A stretch of DNA of 30,482 nt from Promethearchaeota archaeon (GCA_048938445.1 JBHLME010000049.1:1-30482); one strand, 5' to 3'. Numbered from the stretch's first letter, positions 1 through 15,907 are shown. Translations and numbers: made by a program. The notes: generated by a model not told the origin, from the sequence alone.

Positions 1-76
1 GTGGTCTCCGACGCTGGGCTTCAAACCCAGTTATCCTGCGGAGGGATAGGGGTTCGATTCCCCTCGAGGGCCGCCA
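1..76 (+). tRNA. selC: tRNA-Sec (UCA), 5' end truncated by the window edge
   Basis: Anticodon arm CTGGG-CT TCA AA-CCCAG. Long variable arm TATCC..GGATA. 4-bp T stem GGGG-TTCGATT-CCCC. 9-nt acceptor 3' strand TCGAGGGCC, then discriminator G and encoded CCA (9/4 fold). Directly upstream of SepSecS. Confidence 0.95.
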
Positions 77-128
77 AAAATCTTAATAAATGTGTTGAAA
101 CTTGGTAGCTTTTGATAAAATTATTGAA

Positions 129-1466
129 ATGATTAATAAATTGAAAATCCCTCAAAATATGGTAAATAGAGGTCATTTAGTCTTTAATGAATTTTTAAAA
201 CCCCTCAAAGTATTGTTTGAACAAAAAGCAGTTCCCAAAGAACCTTGGTCTGATGAACAAATTGAATTTCTAATTCAAGTATTATCTAACATGGATACTG
301 ATAAAGATCCAGAGGCATCAAGAGTGGGTGAAAGGGAAGCTAGAATTGCATCCAAGATTCACTTAAAGACTTCAGCGGGATTCTGTCATGGTATTGGAAG
401 AAGTGGTTTTCTAACAGCTCCTCAACCAAAAGCTCCTGGGGGATCTATAATGTATGAGCTTACAAACTCCCTTGCTCGGAATTTTTTTAAAAATTTTGGC
501 TTGCCAAATATAAAAGATGCTGCTGTTTTACCATTATGCACGGGAATGTCGCTTGCATTATGTTTAGGTGCATTAAAACCTAAAGGACCTTCAGAATCAT
601 TGAATGATAAAAATATGGTTTTAGTACCCCAGATTGACCATAATTCTCTATTAAAAGCAATGGATTTAGTCGGCGTGAATAAAAAAATTATTAATGGTCA
701 AATCTTTGGGGATGCTGTCAGAATTCCTATTGAAGAAATTAAAAAAGGTTTTGAGAATACTTGTTATGCGATTATATCTCTTACAAGTTTCTTTCCCCCG
801 AGAGAACATGATGACTTAAAAGAAATAAGTAAATTCGCTAAAGAGAAAGATATTTCTCATATTATTATTAATGCCTATGGTGTTCAAAGTCCAGATTGGA
901 TGAGGTTCATACGCTCAGCAATCGATGCAGGACGTGTGGATGTCATAATTCAATCTACGGATAAAAATTTCTTAACTCCAGTGGGCGGATCAGTGATTGC
1001 CTCACCAAAAGAAGGAACCATTGACAAAATAAGCCAAGCTTATGCTGGTAGAGCTTCTGCTACTCCAATTGTGAACTTTTTAATTTCAATGCTATCATTA
1101 GGTCTCAATGGTTATAAAGAACTTTTAGAAACACAACAACAAAATCGCAAGAGATTAGAACTAAAAATGAAAGCTTTTGCTGAGAAGATAGGAGAACGTA
1201 TATTAGATATATTCAATCCAGTCGCCGTGGCAATGTCTCTCGAAGGACTTAAAAAGGAGCAAATAACGGCCCTAGGAGGTGCTTTATATAACTTACGTGT
1301 TACTGGTCCCCGAGTTTTTGATCCAAATGTAAATATTTTTGGTACGTGTAGTAAAAATTACCCTACACCATATATTATAATGAATGCGGCCATCGGAGCA
1401 AGTATCAATGATATTGATTCTGCAGTTTTAAGACTTGAAAAAGCGTACCTCCAAGTAACTCAATAA
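129..1466 (+). CDS. spcS: O-phosphoseryl-tRNA(Sec) selenium transferase (SepSecS)
   Basis: Motifs GEREARI, HGIGRSG..QPKAPG, INAYG, PLP-lysine QSTDKNF and YAGRAS. ATG at 129 is preferred over TTG at 102. Confidence 0.95.
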   Translation: MINKLKIPQNMVNRGHLVFNEFLKPLKVLFEQKAVPKEPWSDEQIEFLIQVLSNMDTDKDPEASRVGEREARIASKIHLKTSAGFCHGIGRSGFLTAPQPKAPGGSIMYELTNSLARNFFKNFGLPNIKDAAVLPLCTGMSLALCLGALKPKGPSESLNDKNMVLVPQIDHNSLLKAMDLVGVNKKIINGQIFGDAVRIPIEEIKKGFENTCYAIISLTSFFPPREHDDLKEISKFAKEKDISHIIINAYGVQSPDWMRFIRSAIDAGRVDVIIQSTDKNFLTPVGGSVIASPKEGTIDKISQAYAGRASATPIVNFLISMLSLGLNGYKELLETQQQNRKRLELKMKAFAEKIGERILDIFNPVAVAMSLEGLKKEQITALGGALYNLRVTGPRVFDPNVNIFGTCSKNYPTPYIIMNAAIGASINDIDSAVLRLEKAYLQVTQ

Positions 1467-1591
1467 TTATGCATAATCCAAATAAACTCTTTAATAAAAG
1501 GATGTACAGAATCGCAATATTTTTTAATGAATACTTTTGTTATATTATCAATTCTAATTATTCATATTAAAAATTATAAACTTTTTGAGCC

Positions 1592-2275
1592 ATGGAAAAT
1601 AAACTTTTAGAGCAATTCGAGAGCGTTATCATATCACAATGGCCATCTAAAGAAATTACTGAAGATTTTGCCCCTTTAAATCATAAAGAATTATTTGAAT
1701 TAGCATACCATACCTGTAATACGATTAGTAGCAGGTGTATTTCCATCCATTTATCTCAAGATGTTAATAAAGGGGGTTCAAAAGCTATTTTATACCATTC
1801 AAAGCAAAAGCGATTTACGTTAATTGAATCATTGGATGAGCATTTAAAGATTATGATGTATAGTTCTGAAGCAAGCACTAATGAAAAATTACCAATCGAA
1901 ATTCAACCAAAATTACAAGAAAGAAAGAATAAGTTCAATTCGAAAGACGCGGATTTTAAAGAACAATTATTAAAAAATATCCTCGTAGAAAGGAAACTTG
2001 ATGAAGCGGCTAACTTATCTATGCTTGAAGCAATAGCTCGTAAAGTATACTTTGCTATAGGCGATGCTCGCGAGAGTGCTGCCGTGGTCCCGATGTTCAT
2101 GCAAGCAGAAGGGGCCAGCTTAGTACAACTTGCTCTTAATAGATGGATGTCATTCGCTCAAAGATTACCTCCTGAGCAAGCATACCCCCAAAATCACGTT
2201 GCAGGACTGTTAAAAAACCTATTAGAGATTAAAAAATGGGTTTTAGGTTTGATAAACTCTAATTTAGATAAATAA
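1592..2275 (+). CDS. hypothetical protein
   Basis: 227-aa ATG ORF with normal composition; no family recognised. Confidence 0.75.
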   Translation: MENKLLEQFESVIISQWPSKEITEDFAPLNHKELFELAYHTCNTISSRCISIHLSQDVNKGGSKAILYHSKQKRFTLIESLDEHLKIMMYSSEASTNEKLPIEIQPKLQERKNKFNSKDADFKEQLLKNILVERKLDEAANLSMLEAIARKVYFAIGDARESAAVVPMFMQAEGASLVQLALNRWMSFAQRLPPEQAYPQNHVAGLLKNLLEIKKWVLGLINSNLDK

Positions 2276-2395
2276 ATCTCTTCTAAAGGGCATTTCCTTA
2301 TTTAATATATTCACTAATCATCTACCAAAAAAAATGAAGGATATCTTAACTATCTCATTAAAGAAGAATTGAATTCTCTCGTTACAGAAAATAAG

Positions 2396-2603
2396 TGGTC
2401 CATCGGGGAATTTCGTTAATCCTTAGAACCTAAGACTTAATTCGAACCCCGGATCTCAGGTTTTTATTGACATGGACAATTTCATATTTAATGTACGTCC
2501 ATGGGTCATTTATAAGACCTGCGCTTGTTGGCCAAGCTATTCAAACCTGTTAACCAGTTCAATTAACGAGGTAATTCCTCGTTAATGTCTGAGCTAATGG
2601 ACC
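2396..2603 (-). tRNA. tRNA-Ile (UAU) with four predicted BHB-type introns
   Basis: Exons 2603-2588, 2556-2551, 2526-2510, 2461-2441 and 2409-2396 join to a 74-nt cloverleaf: GGTCCAT TA GCTC AGATGGTTA AAGC G CAGGT CTTATAA ACCTG AGATC CGGGG TTCGAAT CCCCG ATGGACC A. D-arm splice positions are uncertain by 1-2 nt. Confidence 0.85.
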
Positions 2604-2829
2604 TTGATTAAATTATAAACTCTTTTAATCATAATAAAAGATAAAAAAAATAAAAATTTTTGTAAAACCTTTAGAATTAGAGGGATAACTTTTATAAAAT
2701 TTTTTCTTAAAAAGAGTAAATAAATATAAGTTTTTTCTATATAATCTTATTATAAAAAAAGAATTAATTGAAGAGAAAATTATATAAATAATCTGTAAAT
2801 TGCTCAAAACATATAAAATGTGAATAAAT

Positions 2830-3258
2830 ATGGCAGAAATGTTAACAGACTTGTTACAAAACATATATAATAGAATAGCACAGCTAGGAATTGCAATCCA
2901 AGACCTTAAAAAATCTTTAGATGGACTCAATCAAAATATTGAAGATAAAATCGCAAATCTAACAGAAAAAATTAGCGCATTCTCTAGCGAAATTGATCAA
3001 ACACAAACAAAACACATAGATGTTTTAAATGAGATTGGTAAAGGCGTAACCACTGAATTTGTTAAGCTAAAAGAAGGATTGGGATTAGAAGCTTTTAATA
3101 CTCTTATATCAAGCTTAGAAAACTTTTCTTCATTAGCAGGAGAAGTCTTGAACCAGGATACAGTAAATTTACTCCTTTCTGAAGCAATAGAGTCTGTTAA
3201 AACCTTAAAACAACCAACAATACAAGAAGAGGAAGTAGATCAGGCTTCAGGGGAGTAG
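2830..3258 (+). CDS. coiled-coil hypothetical protein
   Basis: 142-aa helical ORF with a heptad pattern (LLQNIYNRIAQLGIAIQDLKKSLDGLNQNI). Confidence 0.8.
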   Translation: MAEMLTDLLQNIYNRIAQLGIAIQDLKKSLDGLNQNIEDKIANLTEKISAFSSEIDQTQTKHIDVLNEIGKGVTTEFVKLKEGLGLEAFNTLISSLENFSSLAGEVLNQDTVNLLLSEAIESVKTLKQPTIQEEEVDQASGE

Positions 3259-3303
3259 ATTAAAAGAATTTTTAATTAATTTATAAAAAAGTGATTGAAT
3301 AAT

Positions 3304-3729
3304 ATGGCGGAACAATTATTAGATGAAATGATAACGAAAATCGATCAAATTACTGCTTCTTTAGATGGAACTATTGCTCAAATTAACAACATGAGTACCG
3401 CAATTAATGCAATGAGTCAGAAATTTAGTGAAGAAACAGTTTCACTTACGGAGAACATTAGATTAATAGTTGAAGTATTAAAACAGTTTCGTACTAGGTC
3501 AAGTGAAAGTATGCAAGAACTATCGGATGAAATTAATGCTCAGATAAAGGAACTCTATGAAAAAAAAGTTATCGAGAATATCAAAGAAGATGAAATAAAA
3601 GCGATAGAAGATATAAAAAATGCAGCAAAAGCGGTAGCTAACAATGTATATTATGCACAACTATTAACAATCATCCAGTCGATTAGGGAAGAAACAAATC
3701 GAATCATTCAAGCATCATTTAGAACCTAA
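3304..3729 (+). CDS. coiled-coil hypothetical protein, probable distant paralog of the upstream gene
   Basis: ATG at 3304 gives MAEQLLDEMITKIDQI, resembling MAEMLTDLLQNIYNRI upstream. Nearly identical length. Confidence 0.8.
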   Translation: MAEQLLDEMITKIDQITASLDGTIAQINNMSTAINAMSQKFSEETVSLTENIRLIVEVLKQFRTRSSESMQELSDEINAQIKELYEKKVIENIKEDEIKAIEDIKNAAKAVANNVYYAQLLTIIQSIREETNRIIQASFRT

Positions 3730-3795
3730 ATATCTCAATTTTTTTAAATCATTGCTGTTTAATCTATTTTATACCAAGTTATCTTTAATGAGGTT

Positions 3796-4701
3796 TTGAT
3801 TAAATTGCCAAGTGGAACATTTGTCATATTAATGCCTACAGATTCAGATTATAAAGTATTAGGATATTATTTTACTGATAAAAGAGTAGAATTTGAAGTC
3901 ACGAGTGATCTTTTTCTCAGATTAAACTTGGATCACTCGAAAAATGAATATAACTTTTTAAAACTAAAAAATCTTTCATTAGTATCTTACTTGCATAATT
4001 TTAAAGGGAGATTATCAAGAAAAGCTTCTGGAATGATACTAGGATTGCTTCTTGATGAAGATGAAAAACCTGAGAAATTTAGAACTTCGCTTAAAAATGC
4101 GGCATCCGCTATTGAAATAACTGATTTTATTTCGCTATCACGTGAAGATTTTGAAAAAAAATTAGAAGAGATTTATGTTGAGCATTTAGAAACATTAATA
4201 GAGAGTTTAGATCCTGCTCTATTAAATGAAAGTATAATTAATCGAGCAAAGGAAATGTTAAGCGGAAATAAAAAGGATAGACAAATTGCAGATGAATTAT
4301 TAGAGAAAATACAAAATAAAGAACATGAAAAAATCTCTGAATTTTATAAACAGGCAGAAGAAGCTTTAAATACAAGTGATTATGATAAAGCTGCTAAGTT
4401 CTTTGGGAAGGCTGCTGAAGTTGCTGAAGATTTATTGGAAAAAGACTTGGCAAAAACTCTAAAACACAAGTCGAAAATCTCCAATAAAATACCCCTCCTA
4501 ACGAAAAATAGAGAAAAAATGATTCAAGATGCAAGAGCTGCAATTAGAACTGAAAACTTTCATAGTGCTTATATTTTCTTCAAAAAAGCTGCTGAACTAT
4601 CCAAGGAATTGATGGAAGCTGACAAGGAGGAAGAATATAATCTCAAATCTCAAGCTTTAAAGGATTATTATACAGTCGATCAGAAGTATGGTAAGAAATA
4701 A
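3796..4701 (+). CDS. putative longin-like N-terminal domain plus helical (TPR-like) repeat protein
   Basis: The N-terminal ~130 aa show a beta-beta-alpha-beta-beta-beta-alpha-alpha pattern (GTFVIL..KVLGYYF..LVSY..ILGLLLD). The C-terminus has two helical repeats (YDKAAKFFGKAAEVA; FHSAYIFFKKAAELS). The fold is inferred. Confidence 0.55.
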   Translation: MIKLPSGTFVILMPTDSDYKVLGYYFTDKRVEFEVTSDLFLRLNLDHSKNEYNFLKLKNLSLVSYLHNFKGRLSRKASGMILGLLLDEDEKPEKFRTSLKNAASAIEITDFISLSREDFEKKLEEIYVEHLETLIESLDPALLNESIINRAKEMLSGNKKDRQIADELLEKIQNKEHEKISEFYKQAEEALNTSDYDKAAKFFGKAAEVAEDLLEKDLAKTLKHKSKISNKIPLLTKNREKMIQDARAAIRTENFHSAYIFFKKAAELSKELMEADKEEEYNLKSQALKDYYTVDQKYGKK

Positions 4702-4751
4702 TACTTGGTTCACTCTTACAATTGATCACATAATAGATTAATTGAGATAAT

Positions 4752-5588
4752 ATGAATGAATCATCTCCAAAAATAATAGCTCTTCTGACAGATTTTGGAT
4801 CAAGAGGAATGCATTATGTAGCAAGTATGAAAGGAGTTATCTTAAAGATAAATCCCAACGTAAAAATTATAGATATTGCACATGATATTTCACCTTATTC
4901 AATTATCGAAGCTTCTTACTTAATTAAAAGTATATATAAGTTTTATCCTGAAGGTACCATATTCTTGATGGTCATAGATCCAGGAGTAGGAAGCAAAAGA
5001 GAAATTCTCGTGCTCAAATCTAAATTAAATCATTATTATATTGGACCAAATAACGGAATCTTTTCAAAGATTATAAAGGAAAAACACATTTTAGAGTGTG
5101 TTGAGATACAAAATAAAGAATTTTTTCACCTTCCTGTTTCAAATACATTTCACGGAAGGGATATAATGGCTCCTGTAGCCGCCTATATTTCAAAGGGAAT
5201 AGAACTCAAGAAATTTGGAACTTATTTTGAAAAAAAGGATATTGTAAGATATCCAATAACATATAACGTGGATGAAGAAAATAAAATAATTAAAGCAACT
5301 GTTTTATTTATTGATAGTTTTGGGAATATTACGACTAACATTCGAGTAAGGAACAATTTTATAAAGAAAACATTAATTCAAATTGTTATCGGAAATCAAA
5401 TTGAGGTTAAATTTGGAGAAAATATCTATAAAGGTAAAATTACAACTCACTTTAATGATGTACCTGAAGGATCCTTTTTGTTTTTAATAGGTTCAAGTGG
5501 TTATCTAGAAATTTCAAAAAATCAAGGAAATGCTTCGCGAGAAATAGGATGTAAGGTTGGAAATGTCATCACCATAAATTTACACTAA
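4752..5588 (+). CDS. SAM hydroxide adenosyltransferase / chlorinase-fluorinase family (DUF62)
   Basis: Motifs LLTDFG, VIDPGVGS.R, GPNNG, TFHGRDIMAP, IDSFGN and GYLEI. Confidence 0.92.
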   Translation: MNESSPKIIALLTDFGSRGMHYVASMKGVILKINPNVKIIDIAHDISPYSIIEASYLIKSIYKFYPEGTIFLMVIDPGVGSKREILVLKSKLNHYYIGPNNGIFSKIIKEKHILECVEIQNKEFFHLPVSNTFHGRDIMAPVAAYISKGIELKKFGTYFEKKDIVRYPITYNVDEENKIIKATVLFIDSFGNITTNIRVRNNFIKKTLIQIVIGNQIEVKFGENIYKGKITTHFNDVPEGSFLFLIGSSGYLEISKNQGNASREIGCKVGNVITINLH

Positions 5589-5685
5589 AAATATGATAAA
5601 AAAGAAGTAAATATTATTCATTTTAATATTTAATTTTTAGAATAAATTAAATCAAGTTTTAAAATAGAAATTACTATAATATTCA

Positions 5686-6825
5686 TTGATGAAGGAAGAA
5701 ATTATCGCTTGTATTGATAAAAAACATGTAAAATTTTTGGAAACGGGACAAATATCAAAATATATTTTTCCAATGGGCCGCAAGGAAGCTCATGAAAAAA
5801 AAATTGCTCACATCATAACCCGTTTATTTATAATGACGATTACTCCGAAAAATGATATTTTATACCTTGTCCAGAAACGGAGTAAAAATAAAAGAAGTTA
5901 TCCGGATTATTTTACAGACTCCGCTTCAGGGCATGTTATCTACGAAAAAAATTTAGATATTTTAAAGATCGAGAAGAACGCTTTAAGGGAATTAGAGGAA
6001 GAATTTGGAATCCCGATAAAATCAGTTAAAAATCTTATTTTCCGTGATTTACAAGTTGAAAAAGATAATTTCACCGGAGAAATAGCATATATTTTCTATG
6101 GATTAGTTAATAATGATATTAACTTAGAACCAGATCCTCACGAATTAAATGATAGAGAAAGTCATTTTTACAATAGGCAACAATTAATAGAATTATTAGA
6201 TGAATCAGATATCATAGATTATTCAAGAGATATTTGGAGGGAAATCATCAATACAGATATTTTCTCACTCTTTAAAATAAATAATAATTATGACCAAGAA
6301 ATAAAAAAAAAAGAGGAAATTGCTTTATTTATTGGAAGGTTTCAGCCACTCCATCACGGTCATATATATGTAATAAAAAATATCCTTAAAGATTATAAAA
6401 AAATAAAAATTGGAATAGGGAGTTCACAATTATCAAATTCTATAAATGATCCCTTTACAAGCACTGAAAGAATACGATTTATTAAAGCATCAATGAAAAA
6501 AAGAGGAATTAATAAAACTCGATATGAGATCTTTGAAATTCCCGATATTTATAATGCAAAAAAATGGGTCAATCACGTTGTATCTATTGTAGGTGAGTTT
6601 GATATCGTGTTTTCAAATAGCAATTGGGTAAGAAATCTTTTTGAGAATGAGGGATATGAAGTAGGAAAGAAATTAGAAATTTTTAAAAAAAAATATAATG
6701 GAACGAATGTAAGAAAATTAATAAAAAGAAAGGACCAAATGTGGAGACGTTTAATTCCAAAGGAAGTAGTTGAATTAATACTTGAATATAACGGACTAGA
6801 AAGAATAAGTAATTTGGACACGTAA
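5686..6825 (+). CDS. nadM: fusion of an N-terminal Nudix domain and a C-terminal nicotinamide-nucleotide adenylyltransferase
   Basis: Nudix part: QKRSKNK..YP....SASGHV and ALRELEEEFGI. NMNAT part: FIGRFQPLHHGH, GIGSSQ, PFT..ER and GTNVR. Confidence 0.88.
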   Translation: MMKEEIIACIDKKHVKFLETGQISKYIFPMGRKEAHEKKIAHIITRLFIMTITPKNDILYLVQKRSKNKRSYPDYFTDSASGHVIYEKNLDILKIEKNALRELEEEFGIPIKSVKNLIFRDLQVEKDNFTGEIAYIFYGLVNNDINLEPDPHELNDRESHFYNRQQLIELLDESDIIDYSRDIWREIINTDIFSLFKINNNYDQEIKKKEEIALFIGRFQPLHHGHIYVIKNILKDYKKIKIGIGSSQLSNSINDPFTSTERIRFIKASMKKRGINKTRYEIFEIPDIYNAKKWVNHVVSIVGEFDIVFSNSNWVRNLFENEGYEVGKKLEIFKKKYNGTNVRKLIKRKDQMWRRLIPKEVVELILEYNGLERISNLDT

Positions 6826-6830
6826 TATTA

Positions 6831-7904
6831 ATGATGCATGATAAGGAATTTTTAGTAATTGATGGATCTATGGGAGAAGGTGGGGGTGCTATACTCCGTT
6901 TAAGTGCTGCATTTTCCATATTATATAATCAGCCAATAAGAATAATTAATATCCGCTCTAAACGACCAAAACCAGGACTAAGACTTCAACATTTATTAGG
7001 ACTTCGTTCCTTAGCAGAATTGACAGGAAGTAAATTAAGTAATTGTGATGTGGGCTCAACTGATTTAACCTTCAATCCAAATAATGATATTAAAACTTCA
7101 ATACAAGTGAATATAAGCACTGCAGCAAGTATTGGCTTGTTAATCCAACCAATTCAAATAGCATGTTTAGGAATTAAAGATCATGGTAAGGTAGAAATTA
7201 AATTTAATGGTGGAGGTACCTTTGGTAAATGGGCTCCAAGTATGAATTACCTAATGCACGTAACTTATCCAATTTTTAAACAAGTTGGGCTTAAGGTCGA
7301 GGTTGATATAAATAAACATGGATGGTATCCAAAAGGAGGTGCAATTGGAAAAATTACTATTTATCCTCCAAAAGAAAAATTGAATCCAATAAAAATGACG
7401 GAATTAGGTAAAATTGAGGAGATCCATGGTGAAATCATTATTTCTAATCATTTAAAGCGAGAAAGGGATGATATCGCACGAAGAATAAAAAGAGCAACGG
7501 AAAACTACCTTAAAGACTTTTCTAATTTTACAACTAATATCAGAGAGATTTGGGTAAACTCTAGCAGTCCTGGTGTTGGATTAAGTTTATGGGCTCAATC
7601 AAATAATGGAAATATTATATCATCTGGAACAATCTTAGGGGAAAAGAGAATCTCCTCTGAAAAACTTGGTGAAATGGCGGCAAATGAGATTTTAAATTAT
7701 ATTAAGAAAGATATCCCTATTGATAGATACTTAAGTGATCAAGTGATTCCTTTAATGGCTTATATTAGAGAATCATCTATTATTAGAGTGCTTGATATTA
7801 CGAGTCATGCGAAAACCAACATACAAGTGATTAAAAAATTCACGAATCGTGATTATAAAATCATTAAGAATAAGGATGATACTTGTTATATCCAATATAA
7901 CTGA
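6831..7904 (+). CDS. rtcA: RNA 3'-terminal phosphate cyclase
   Basis: Motifs IDGSMGEGGGAILR, RPKPGLRLQHL, GWYPKGG, DRYLSDQ and catalytic His in SHAKTN. Confidence 0.95.
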   Translation: MMHDKEFLVIDGSMGEGGGAILRLSAAFSILYNQPIRIINIRSKRPKPGLRLQHLLGLRSLAELTGSKLSNCDVGSTDLTFNPNNDIKTSIQVNISTAASIGLLIQPIQIACLGIKDHGKVEIKFNGGGTFGKWAPSMNYLMHVTYPIFKQVGLKVEVDINKHGWYPKGGAIGKITIYPPKEKLNPIKMTELGKIEEIHGEIIISNHLKRERDDIARRIKRATENYLKDFSNFTTNIREIWVNSSSPGVGLSLWAQSNNGNIISSGTILGEKRISSEKLGEMAANEILNYIKKDIPIDRYLSDQVIPLMAYIRESSIIRVLDITSHAKTNIQVIKKFTNRDYKIIKNKDDTCYIQYN

Positions 7905-7996
7905 TATGATACTAATTTAAAAACATTAAAATGAGAGAATTTTTATAGCACTATTGTTACTATATGATTATTAAAACTCTCATTAAAAATTAAATA

Positions 7997-8932
7997 ATGT
8001 CCATTACATCAGTTCGCGCAATTCAAAGATGTCCAAGATGTGGAAATGAGAATAAAGCTGCGAATTTTCAATGTACTTTTTGCGGGAAAAGACTAAGAAT
8101 TGAAGGAATTGAAAGAGTTTTCATATGGAGAAGAATCGAAGATGAATGGGCCGCACCTTATCCTTGGTATCGTAAGTTATATTATCTATTTATAAATAGT
8201 CCACGAGCATTCTGGGATATTAATCATCAAAGAAAAAAAGCTCCAAGTAAAATAATCTTTTTCACTATTTCAATAGTTTATGCATTTGTTTGGATGACAC
8301 TATTTCTTCATCTAAAAATTCCTGATTTCCCCCTGAATATAAATTCCTTTGTAGCTCCATTGATCGGATTATTAACTGGATTCTTATTCGGTATAATATA
8401 TCATTTTCTATTGTTTGAAATATTAATATGGTTATTCACTAAAGGTGCTAACTATGCTGTTGATTATTCGGCAAAATTAGAATCAAGATTTGGGAAAAAG
8501 AGTAGGGAACAATTTGAAAAATATGATGAAGCTCACATGAGTCCCTTTAGTATATATAAAGGAGGTGTCCTTCAACAAAAATATGCATATAAAAATAAAA
8601 TGATGTTTTGTGCTTTTATACCTTTTATAATTACTTATATCATTGAGATCATTGTCATAAGCATCGCATTCGGCACCATGGAATTTGATTTAAATGATAT
8701 TGGTTTGAGAACGCTATTTCAATTCCATGCTCCAGTATGGGTTGTGATATACACGATTGAAGCATTAACCATAATGTTATGGATACCTAGCTTGATGGCA
8801 ATTGCAATTAGAGAATTATCCAATTCTTCTACATATCGAGTAGTATTATCATCGTATATTGTTGCGATAATCGTAGCTATTTTTTATTTCTTTTTGAGAC
8901 CAGCATTTACTTGGATGGTATTAGGTAGCTAG
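7997..8932 (+). CDS. zinc-ribbon plus Yip1-like multi-pass membrane protein
   Basis: CPRCG..CTFCG, then a 'LFINSPRAFWDI' Yip1-like amphipathic segment and about 5 TM helices. Confidence 0.65.
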   Translation: MSITSVRAIQRCPRCGNENKAANFQCTFCGKRLRIEGIERVFIWRRIEDEWAAPYPWYRKLYYLFINSPRAFWDINHQRKKAPSKIIFFTISIVYAFVWMTLFLHLKIPDFPLNINSFVAPLIGLLTGFLFGIIYHFLLFEILIWLFTKGANYAVDYSAKLESRFGKKSREQFEKYDEAHMSPFSIYKGGVLQQKYAYKNKMMFCAFIPFIITYIIEIIVISIAFGTMEFDLNDIGLRTLFQFHAPVWVVIYTIEALTIMLWIPSLMAIAIRELSNSSTYRVVLSSYIVAIIVAIFYFFLRPAFTWMVLGS

Positions 8933-9117
8933 ATTTTATATATAAATTCGCTTTTTAATAATCAAGTTTTTAATTATTTTCAATTTATGCTTGAGTTTTA
9001 ATGTTATCCAATTTATATAGGAAGTCAAATTCATAAAATTATTATTGAACCGTAAATTTTTAAAAAATATTAATATCTCTTTTGACAAATAATATAAATT
9101 TATAAAAGGAAAGTATC

Positions 9118-9387
9118 ATGCCAAGACCTGGACTACGTTCTAAAGCACAGAAACGCCATGCATTAAGGACTCCTGGAAATCAAAATGTAACTCACTATTG
9201 GAGAAAAATCCCTAAAAAGAGTCATTGTGCTCTTTGTAAAAAACAACTTCAATCCATACCTAATCTCCGGCCAACGAAAATGAAAAAGACTAAAAATACC
9301 GCTAGAAGAGCAAATAGGTTAGAATCTGGTAGATATTGTGCTAAATGCCTCCAAATTTTAATAAAAGAAACGGTATATAATCAATAA
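9118..9387 (+). CDS. rpl34e: 50S ribosomal protein L34e
   Basis: MPRPGLRS..RTPG, CALC..L..IP, R..R..SGRYCAKC. Confidence 0.95.
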   Translation: MPRPGLRSKAQKRHALRTPGNQNVTHYWRKIPKKSHCALCKKQLQSIPNLRPTKMKKTKNTARRANRLESGRYCAKCLQILIKETVYNQ

Positions 9388-9452
9388 TTTTATATTGTTT
9401 TAAATTACTCTTATCTTATTATAGTATGTTTATTCAATCCTAAATTTTTAAA

Positions 9453-9989
9453 ATGATTGTAACAATTTCAGGTCTACATGGAACTGGAAAATCAATAATT
9501 GGTAAAAAAATTGCTTCAATCTTCGGATTGAAATATTATTCAACAGGTCAAGTATTCAGAGAAATGGCAAGAGAATATAATATGACCCTTGAACAATTTA
9601 CAAAGTACGTTGAGGAAAATCCTGAAATTGATAAACAATTAGATCATAAAATTCTAGACCTCGCACGTGAAGATAATATTATAATTGATAGCCAGCTGAG
9701 TGCCTATATCTTAAAATCTAAAGCAAATTTTAAAATTCTTCTTACTTGTTCTATAGATACACGAGTTAAAAGAATGGCTGAGAGAGATAAAACTTCTTTT
9801 GAAAAAAAAATGAGAGAAACAGTTCTTCGAGAGAAATCTGAAGAAAAACGATTTAAAGAATTATATGACATCAATTTAAATGATCAAGAATACCAAGAAA
9901 AGACCTATGATTTGATAATAGACACGACTAACTTGACAATAGATCAAATTGTGAATAAAATCGTTGGAAACATAAAAAAAACTGAGTAA
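9453..9989 (+). CDS. cmk: cytidylate kinase (archaeal type)
   Basis: TISGLHGTGKS P-loop, STGQVFREMA, RE.SE.KRF..LY and YDLIIDT. Canonical position after rpl34e. Confidence 0.93.
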   Translation: MIVTISGLHGTGKSIIGKKIASIFGLKYYSTGQVFREMAREYNMTLEQFTKYVEENPEIDKQLDHKILDLAREDNIIIDSQLSAYILKSKANFKILLTCSIDTRVKRMAERDKTSFEKKMRETVLREKSEEKRFKELYDINLNDQEYQEKTYDLIIDTTNLTIDQIVNKIVGNIKKTE

Positions 9990-10107
9990 CTCTCCAATAA
10001 AAATTAATACGCTTGATCAGTACATTTCAAAAAAATATTATTTTTAAATAGTATCATGTCTAAATATCAAACTGTGATAAAACATCTATTACAACAAAAC
10101 TCAGGAT

Positions 10108-15680: not shown

Positions 15681-15798
15681 GCAACGGTAGCCTAGCCTGG
15701 TAAGGCGCTGGCTTGGAGCGGTAATACCTACAAGAAGAAAAATGGTCCCAGAAAGCCAGTGTGCTCTGCACTCGGGGGTTCAAATCCCTCCCGTTGCG
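15681..15798 (+). tRNA. tRNA-Ser (GGA) with a canonical 37/38 intron (15719-15753)
   Basis: Acceptor GCAACGG/CCGTTGC, anticodon arm CTGGC-TT GGA G^A-GCCAG, variable arm GTGC-TCT-GCAC, TTCAAAT T loop, discriminator G, BHB helix TTGG/CCAG. Confidence 0.93.
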
Positions 15799-15907
15799 CT
15801 TTAAAATTAAGATTTTTAATCATAATTTGATAAAAATAAAAAATCGATATGTAACTATGGATCATATCTTTAATATCCAATTTGGGATTCTTGGACAATA
15901 CTTAAGG

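Follow-up and report, generated by a model that had tools for sequence, protein, structure and literature searches.

Layout of the gene and its predicted spliced product

We examined a stretch of DNA of 30,482 nucleotides (nt) from a Promethearchaeota archaeon (GCA_048938445.1, JBHLME010000049.1:1-30482), referred to below in its whole length as the window; Promethearchaeota is presumably what NCBI now calls the Lokiarchaeota lineage. On the minus strand, window 2396-2603 carries a 208-nt tRNA-Ile(UAU) gene that is divided into five exons by four introns. The gene, the bulge-helix-bulge motifs at its junctions, the cloverleaf of its product, its conservation among relatives and the genes for the splicing enzymes were all observed, and we consider it very probable that this is a functional tRNA-Ile(UAU) gene whose four introns are spliced at these motifs. 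An earlier reading of the same DNA (the sequence-only reading) had described one colinear tRNA gene with four introns and an exon of just 6 nt, TGGTTA, and this description was borne out by the sequence, the motifs and the orthologs. The parts of the gene are as follows, local position i being window position 2604-i.

2587-2603 (local 1-17), minus strand: exon 1, 17 nt; acceptor GGTCCAT, TA, D-stem GCTC and D-loop AGAC; identical in ortholog L002
2557-2586 (local 18-47), minus strand: intron 1, 30 nt, in the D-loop at about 17/17a; central helix TCAG/TTGA (12-15/42-45), bulges ACA and ACT, inner hairpin of 9 base pairs (bp), outer helix of 1 bp
2551-2556 (local 48-53), minus strand: exon 2, 6 nt, TGGTTA; D-loop U17a-G18-G19-U20-U20a-A21
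2527-2550, minus strand: intron 2, 24 nt, at 21/22; central helix TGGT/GCCA (48-51/72-75), bulges TAA and ACA, inner helix of 6 bp, outer helix of 0 bp
2510-2526 (local 78-94), minus strand: exon 3, 17 nt; D-stem AAGC, G26, anticodon stem CAGGT, loop CTTATAA with anticodon TAT
2462-2509, minus strand: intron 3, 48 nt, in the anticodon loop at 37/38 (38/39 in the motif register); central helix TTAT/ATAA (89-92/137-140), which pairs the anticodon with the intron, bulges AAA and AAA, inner helix TGAC/GTCA (4 bp) plus ATGGAC/GTCCAT, outer helix of 0 bp
2441-2461 (local 143-163), minus strand: exon 4, 21 nt; anticodon stem ACCTG, variable loop AGATC, T-stem CGGGG, T-loop TTCGAA
2410-2440, minus strand: intron 4, 31 nt, at 59/60; central helix TTCG/CGAA (158-161/189-192), bulges AAT and ATT, inner helix of 1 bp, outer helix identical with the 5-bp T-stem
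2396-2409 (local 195-208), minus strand: exon 5, 14 nt; T60, T-stem CCCCG, acceptor ATGGACC, discriminator A

The acceptor stem comprises 7 bp, with GGTCCAT at the gene start and ATGGACC near the end, followed by the discriminator A; CCA is not encoded at the 3′ end of the gene. ARAGORN identified the 75-nt sequence spliced in silico as tRNA-Ile(tat) with a normal cloverleaf. The anticodon UAU lies in a 7-nt loop on a 5-bp stem of a class I cloverleaf, both here and in all 60 orthologs described below. All five exons are colinear on one strand within 208 nt, which is not the arrangement of a split or permuted tRNA gene. At the 5′ end of intron 3, cuts after any of local 92 to 95 give the same product because of the A runs there.

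The helices named by the sequence-only reading were all present, namely, ATTAACGAGG/CCTCGTTAAT at local 18-27/33-42 and TGGT/GCCA, TTAT/ATAA and TTCG/CGAA with the bulges it had described. Its lengths of 31 nt for the first insert and 74 nt for the mature cloverleaf, however, have to be corrected to 30 and 75 nt. With a 30-nt insert, the central helix has 4 bp, the inner helix 9 bp and each bulge 3 nt, whereas the 31-nt version pairs only two of the four central bases in the same 4-bp register. Furthermore, the D-loop measures 10 nt in 48/48 orthologs without intron 1, while the 31-nt version would give 9 nt, and ortholog L013 carries the predicted D-loop AGACTGGTTA unchanged in its uninterrupted loop. 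The D-loop length in the orthologs and the motif register therefore indicate a mature tRNA of 75 nt. The 74-nt version, obtained by removing the inserts as first drawn, was also called tRNA-Ile(tat) by ARAGORN.

Ortholog series, splicing motifs and probable splicing route

Orthologous loci were collected by BLAST of 40 relatives, from seven further regions by their place, and with an exact anticodon-arm pattern in one genome per GTDB species. The GTDB-wide pattern scan gave at least 119 stretches, and the 60 orthologous genes analyzed are a sample. Matches with an alignment score below 78 (chance matches in bacteria), 12 non-Asgard loci (DPANN and bacterial tRNA-Ile) and L016, which is truncated by a contig end, were left out; merging of identical sequences reduced 77 loci to 69 distinct genes, of which 60 Asgard genes were kept. 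Among the named records that hold these genes, most bear the title Promethearchaeota/Promethearchaeia, the others having different Asgard names. Inserts were placed by spliced alignment against 44 compact references.

A comparison of intron presence and absence among related orthologs, which had been suggested as a check by the sequence-only reading, found from one to four introns per gene (one in 2 genes, two in 25, three in 22 and four in 11). Exactly the four-intron set of this locus occurs in seven genes, and the four other four-intron genes combine the 21/22, anticodon-loop, variable-loop and 59/60 sites; L009 has the anticodon-loop intron only, and L013 has introns 2 and 3. Each insert is therefore bounded separately by the variation among orthologs. 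When spliced in silico, all 60 genes yielded a 75-nt product that was called tRNA-Ile(tat) and kept at least 6 of the 7 acceptor pairs. Occupancy by site was as follows.

Anticodon-loop site: occupied in 60/60 genes; canonical motif in 41/60
D-arm 21/22 site: occupied in 47/60 genes; canonical motif in 47/47
T-loop 59/60 site: occupied in 27/60 genes; canonical motif in 24/27
Variable-loop site (about 45-47): occupied in 15/60 genes (for example L015, L018, L027, L038 and L039) by 29-31 nt; canonical motif in 2/15
D-loop site: occupied in 12/60 genes by hairpins of differing sequence; canonical motif in 8/12

The variable-loop intron may have a relaxed motif, or its boundaries may have been placed wrongly; a 16-nt insert of L035 ("o51") is a possible alignment artefact. 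This natural series, with one to four introns at five recurrent sites in 60 relatives, sets each boundary independently of the splicing motif and could serve the study of intron gain and loss.

Canonical bulge-helix-bulge motifs were found at all four junctions, at positions fixed by homology, each with 4/4 central pairs and two 3-nt bulges. In each motif, the central helix joins four exon bases just ahead of the 5′ bulge to four intron bases just ahead of the 3′ bulge. Introns 1 to 3 are of the HBh′ type, and intron 4 takes the T-stem as its outer helix; removal at the predicted cut sites restores a 10-nt D-loop, a 7-nt anticodon loop and a 7-nt T-loop. Among the ortholog introns, 122 of 165 lay at a canonical motif within 3 nt of the homology boundary, compared with 446 of 4579 (9.7%) moved controls, in which inserts of the same length were shifted by at least 8 nt. 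Covariation was seen between exon base 57 and its partner in intron 4, which form G-C in 6 genes and A-T in 10. Likewise, contigs of other runs carried changes on both sides of the intron-1 stem (A-T to G-C at local 22-38 and A-T to T-A at 25-35). The minimum-energy fold of the precursor had -73.9 kcal/mol (z = -7.2), a value that none of 200 shuffles attained, and contained the acceptor stem together with the hairpin of intron 1 and the motif of intron 4.

As for the splicing machinery, two EndA paralogs of 202 and 204 amino acids, each with PF01974 and PF02778, are encoded in the genome, together with RtcB (563.7 bits). The C26 paralog aligned over its full length to the solved chain 3p1z_B (E = 1.8e-35) with the catalytic His aligned, and the C80 paralog, whose best match was 1a79_A, has a non-His at the corresponding place as read from the alignment. 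We take 3p1z_B to be the catalytic subunit of a crenarchaeal two-subunit EndA. Judged by these alignments, the EndA of this archaeon is probably a two-subunit enzyme of one catalytic and one structural paralog, and the broad EndA specificity that the sequence-only reading had envisaged is plausible with two paralogs of which one has the catalytic His and the other a non-His. According to the available portions of two sources, the two-subunit pattern is linked to non-canonical and multiple introns (PMC4090602), and 44 of 60 Asgard genomes show the same catalytic and structural EndA pair (10.64898/2026.10.13.758758).

Transcription would yield a precursor of about 208 nt, extended by a leader and a trailer; EndA would cut in both bulges of each motif, and RtcB would join the exon ends. 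The CCA-adding enzyme would then complete the 75-nt tRNA, which would read the frequent AUA codon; in long open frames, 36.2 of every 1000 codons are ATA, which makes up 34% of those for Ile. Introns 1 and 2 have abutting motifs that share T48, as the final bulge base in the one and the opening helix base in the other. These two introns would be removed one after the other, each by a cut and then ligation, since the 6-nt exon 2 would be set free if both were cut before any joining; such a stepwise cut-and-join of the D-arm introns is likely. Neither order of removal would be compulsory, since each motif uses local sequence only. A 6-nt exon between abutting motifs makes stepwise splicing testable in vitro. 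The main text of the preprint 10.64898/2026.10.13.758758, as far as available, had no statement on stepwise cut-and-join. The contigs of four DNA runs, which are uninformative on expression, held no joints across the introns.

Two further elements next to the gene may serve its transcription.

2650-2661, minus strand: candidate promoter element (BRE/TATA), A/T motif AAAAATTTTTAT, some 58 nt before the mature 5′ end
2386-2394, minus strand: candidate oligo-T terminator, T-rich trailer TTATTTTCT

In 36 of 59 orthologs, the pattern AAA[AT]TTTT[TA]A stood no more than 110 nt upstream, with a cluster at 57-65 nt, a count given without a chance expectation for AT-rich DNA, and TTTT occurred within 20 nt downstream in 47 of 60, likewise without a chance expectation.

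Some features of the introns stand apart from the splicing motifs. Intron 3 keeps sequence blocks across genera, such as GGACATACA and the AGTAAAA end, which is unusual conservation for an intron, and BLAST aligns through it at 72-89% identity to other genera because of these blocks. A C/D-box guide RNA in intron 3 was rejected from the sequence, which lacks an RUGAUGA box and, at 48 nt, is too short. An origin of intron 2 as a D-loop duplication was considered, AGCTTGG being present twice in some orthologs; the likeness of intron 2 to the D-loop in AGCTTGG is, however, demanded anyway by the pairing with TGGT. No copies of the introns were seen elsewhere in the genome, where BLAST gave only weak matches of 18-24 nt.

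Evidence against the assignment and alternative explanations

Several observations weigh against a functional gene spliced at the four motifs. Transcription, cleavage, ligation and sequential removal are predicted from the sequence, as are the cut sites and the mature 5′ and 3′ ends; a search for RNA runs containing this DNA, made for window 1-10000, gave none. The outer helix has 0-1 pairs in introns 1, 2 and 3, so these are not full hBHBh′ motifs, and no canonical motif lies within 3 nt of the site in 4 of 12 orthologs at the D-loop, 19 of 60 at the anticodon loop and 3 of 27 at the T-loop. Motifs are also common by chance: a scan of the 208 nt gave 82 candidates of the canonical class, and shuffled versions gave 70 ± 13. 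The minimum-energy fold joins CAGGUUU of intron 2 to the 3′ strand of the anticodon stem, and the conformer holding all four motifs, at -65.3 kcal/mol, lies 8.6 kcal/mol above that fold. The same run contigs that show the paired changes in the intron-1 stem also carry changes by which, as read from the stem, adjoining pairs become G.U wobbles or a C.A or A.C mismatch. Finally, a second, intron-free tRNA-Ile(tat) is encoded in a tRNA array on C215, and in a contig of run X3 (depth 3.6), window 2375 is followed by 17 other letters and then by 2636. A bulge-helix-bulge scan as a stand-alone detector was rejected, as shuffles yield about as many candidates.

The missing outer helices of introns 1 to 3, the energy of the all-motif conformer and the negative search for RNA runs speak for a real gene whose inserts are handled otherwise, be it by other cut sites, by keeping a D-arm insert as an enlarged loop or by another route of D-arm removal. 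In the same direction, the preprint 10.64898/2026.10.13.758758, in its available portion, speaks of "intervening sequences" only and reports canonical motifs for just 33% of missed D-arm inserts. We nevertheless regard this explanation as unlikely. All four junctions combine complete central helices and 3-nt bulges with positions that restore normal loops, and intron 2 is canonical in every one of the 47 orthologs that have it. Removal of the two D-arm inserts as one, an outcome the sequence-only reading had allowed for, is contradicted by the orthologs: the bases of exon 2 are the unbroken D-loop sequence in those without introns 1 and/or 2, and genes with only insert 2 or with neither keep TGGTTA or TGGTCA as D-loop. 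One-piece removal of local 18-77 would lose G18 and G19, which the orthologs without these introns keep.

Alternatively, the locus could be a decaying or silent copy (pseudogene), with AUA read by another tRNA such as the tRNA-Ile(tat) of the C215 array. The presence of that second gene in the assembly, the C13.A22 mismatch and the one contig variant without the locus are in line with such a copy. The mismatch, however, which the sequence-only reading had raised as a pseudogene caveat, is native to the lineage, as C13.A22 occurs in 32/60 orthologs and U13-A22 in 26/60; C13.A22 is also found in L009, whose D-arm is uninterrupted. Compared with the closest ortholog, L002 of the same genus, 0/75 exon bases but 23/133 intron bases differ (Fisher p = 3e-5), and identity to the six other genes with this architecture is 93-100% in exons and 46-100% in introns. 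By these comparisons, the exons are under purifying selection and the introns are not. In addition, 60/60 orthologs retain a spliceable 75-nt tRNA, and the anticodon-arm pattern occurs once in 47 of 51 genomes of this family, whereas array-like matches were found in 7 of 41 genomes, its own included. Aligned with the mature product, the tRNA-Ile of the array agrees with it in only 46 of 79 columns. A decaying or silent copy is thus very unlikely in our judgment, and the functional, spliced gene is preferred. Because of the second tRNA-Ile(tat) on C215, this gene is not demonstrably the sole AUA decoder in the bin.

The array itself lies at about 6480-15110 of C215 (L141-L145) and is intron-free, comprising 27 tRNAs by Rfam and 26 by ARAGORN for most amino acids, in contrast to the interrupted dispersed tRNA genes. 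Its flanks are cellular (CheR, a B12-binding protein, a URO-D-like protein, radical SAM and MFS), and its GC content of 0.30 is like that of the genome. Only two relatives gave multiple hits to it (G020:C54 and G008:C266). It may be a native accessory array, a mobile element or contamination.

That the four inserts are an assembly artefact or a metagenomic chimera is scarcely conceivable. The source is indeed a metagenome-assembled genome with 8.2% estimated contamination, and the depth over window 2494-2556 is inflated by reads of relatives. Against this, the same architecture is present in a genome of the same genus, at 89% identity over 208 nt, and in five further assemblies, and the locus is spanned in another run by two overlapping contigs, one with 2 differences and one with none. 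The junction in the X3 contig looks like a variant in the population from which the tRNA gene is missing at this position.

AUA decoding and relation to known tRNA genes

Neither Pfam domain of TiaS, which supplies the agmatidine used in reading AUA, was found in this 96.5%-complete genome, whereas 4 archaeal control genomes were positive. Together with the frequency of ATA codons, this result speaks for a need for the tRNA. TiaS was likewise found in 0/41 genomes of the order sample and in 0/51 genomes of this family, as against 120/201 Asgard genomes overall (phylum sample, at least 85% complete). With the same sampling settings, the tRNA-Ile(UAU) anticodon-arm pattern, an exact pattern that would miss diverged versions outside the family, was present in the 47 family genomes noted above and in 0/149 others. 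The negative searches for TiaS, together with the occurrence of tRNA-Ile(UAU), suggest eukaryote-like AUA decoding in this family. If the pairing holds, such decoding exists in close relatives of eukaryotes. No paper that connects Asgard archaea with TiaS loss and tRNA-Ile(UAU) came up in our literature searches.

Prokaryotes generally do not use UAU, as stated in the available part of PMC8879553, and a survey of 167 archaeal genomes, likewise available in part, recorded tRNA-Ile(UAU) in two only (PMC6000648). These two, Korarchaeum cryptofilum and Nanoarchaeum equitans, resemble the present case in having an archaeal tRNA-Ile(UAU), the Korarchaeum gene with one intron; unlike in that survey, the anticodon is found here in nearly all sampled genomes of one Asgard family. 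The nuclear tRNA-Ile(UAU) of eukaryotes is alike in that its anticodon UAU reads AUA and its anticodon-loop intron pairs with the anticodon and is always present, as in the 60 orthologs here, and differs in having one intron only; we claim no homology of the introns. In yeast, this intron is required for pseudouridines 34 and 36, according to the available part of PMC4090602. By analogy, the family might have dropped the usual archaeal route for AUA, a tRNA-Ile2 with agmatidine made by TiaS, and kept the anticodon intron in every gene for intron-dependent modification of the anticodon, the other introns being tolerated later additions. In that case, the 6-nt exon would force stepwise cycles of cutting and joining, and a permissive endonuclease would tolerate the extra D-arm and T-loop introns. 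We regard this scenario as rather unlikely.

Multi-intron tRNA genes of Thermoproteales were reportedly described by Sugahara et al. in 2007/2008. Such genes, as treated in the available part of PMC4090602, resemble this one in having up to three bulge-helix-bulge introns, D-arm and 59/60 sites and a relaxed two-subunit EndA; the present gene, however, belongs to another phylum with mesophilic, AT-rich genomes and has four introns. The statement in the sequence-only reading that tRNA genes have up to three introns, mainly in Thermoproteales, is outdated, as Asgard tRNA genes with up to five intervening sequences have been published. In three Asgard genomes, 92-95% of tRNA genes have introns, over half of them several (Valentin-Alvarado et al. 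2024, PMC11291895, as available in part). The accessible text of a preprint by Goswami et al. of October 2026 (10.64898/2026.10.13.758758) reports 2.2 intervening sequences per gene in three families and up to five in one gene, with D-arm inserts preferentially missed by tRNAscan-SE and canonical motifs 6-10 times enriched.

As in that kind of heavily interrupted Asgard tRNA gene, defined by at least two inserts of at least 10 nt each, the gene described here has four inserts relative to compact orthologs, some of them in the D-arm, and the locus is missed by ARAGORN and Rfam. To judge from the accessible text, it also shares with the published genes several short introns (about 20-50 nt), non-canonical sites, enrichment of bulge-helix-bulge motifs, two EndA paralogs and repeated gain and loss among relatives. 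In contrast, the heaviest published load is in Atabeyarchaeia and Jordiarchaeia (Freyr-/Jordiarchaeaceae), other Asgard families averaging 0.91 per gene, whereas in the family here most named members carry the title Promethearchaeota. The gene is thus a further example of the published Asgard kind and not a new kind; nor is it a record, because up to five intervening sequences per Asgard tRNA gene had already been described. The lineage, the one-to-four-intron series within one gene family and the micro-exon may be new; Lokiarchaeia, tRNA-Ile and micro-exons did not appear in the main text of 10.64898/2026.10.13.758758 as far as accessible, and its supplementary tables may list the gene family.

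The expectation of the sequence-only reading that standard scanners would miss the gene proved true for ARAGORN in its default and intron modes and for the Rfam tRNA model at the gathering score, all run on the unspliced locus. Even at E up to 10, the Rfam tRNA model did not find the locus on window 2300-2700. A whole-genome ARAGORN intron-mode entry, "tRNA-Tyr c[2396,2529]", was considered as this locus and rejected, as it belongs to another contig; the run on the window gave only a tRNA-Ser. Outside the C215 array, only 23 Rfam tRNA matches reached the cut-off in the 96.5%-complete genome, several of them partial (model positions 5-66 and 6-65). Because of this low number, and with the full tRNA set of the size that we assume for such a genome, about half of the set is probably hidden from standard scanners by introns, as here. 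The window also holds a tRNA-Ser(gga) gene at 15681-15799 on the plus strand, with a 35-nt anticodon-loop intron (Rfam 47.9 bits; also found by ARAGORN), and at window 1-72 on the plus strand a tRNA that is cut by the contig start (Rfam 29.3 bits).

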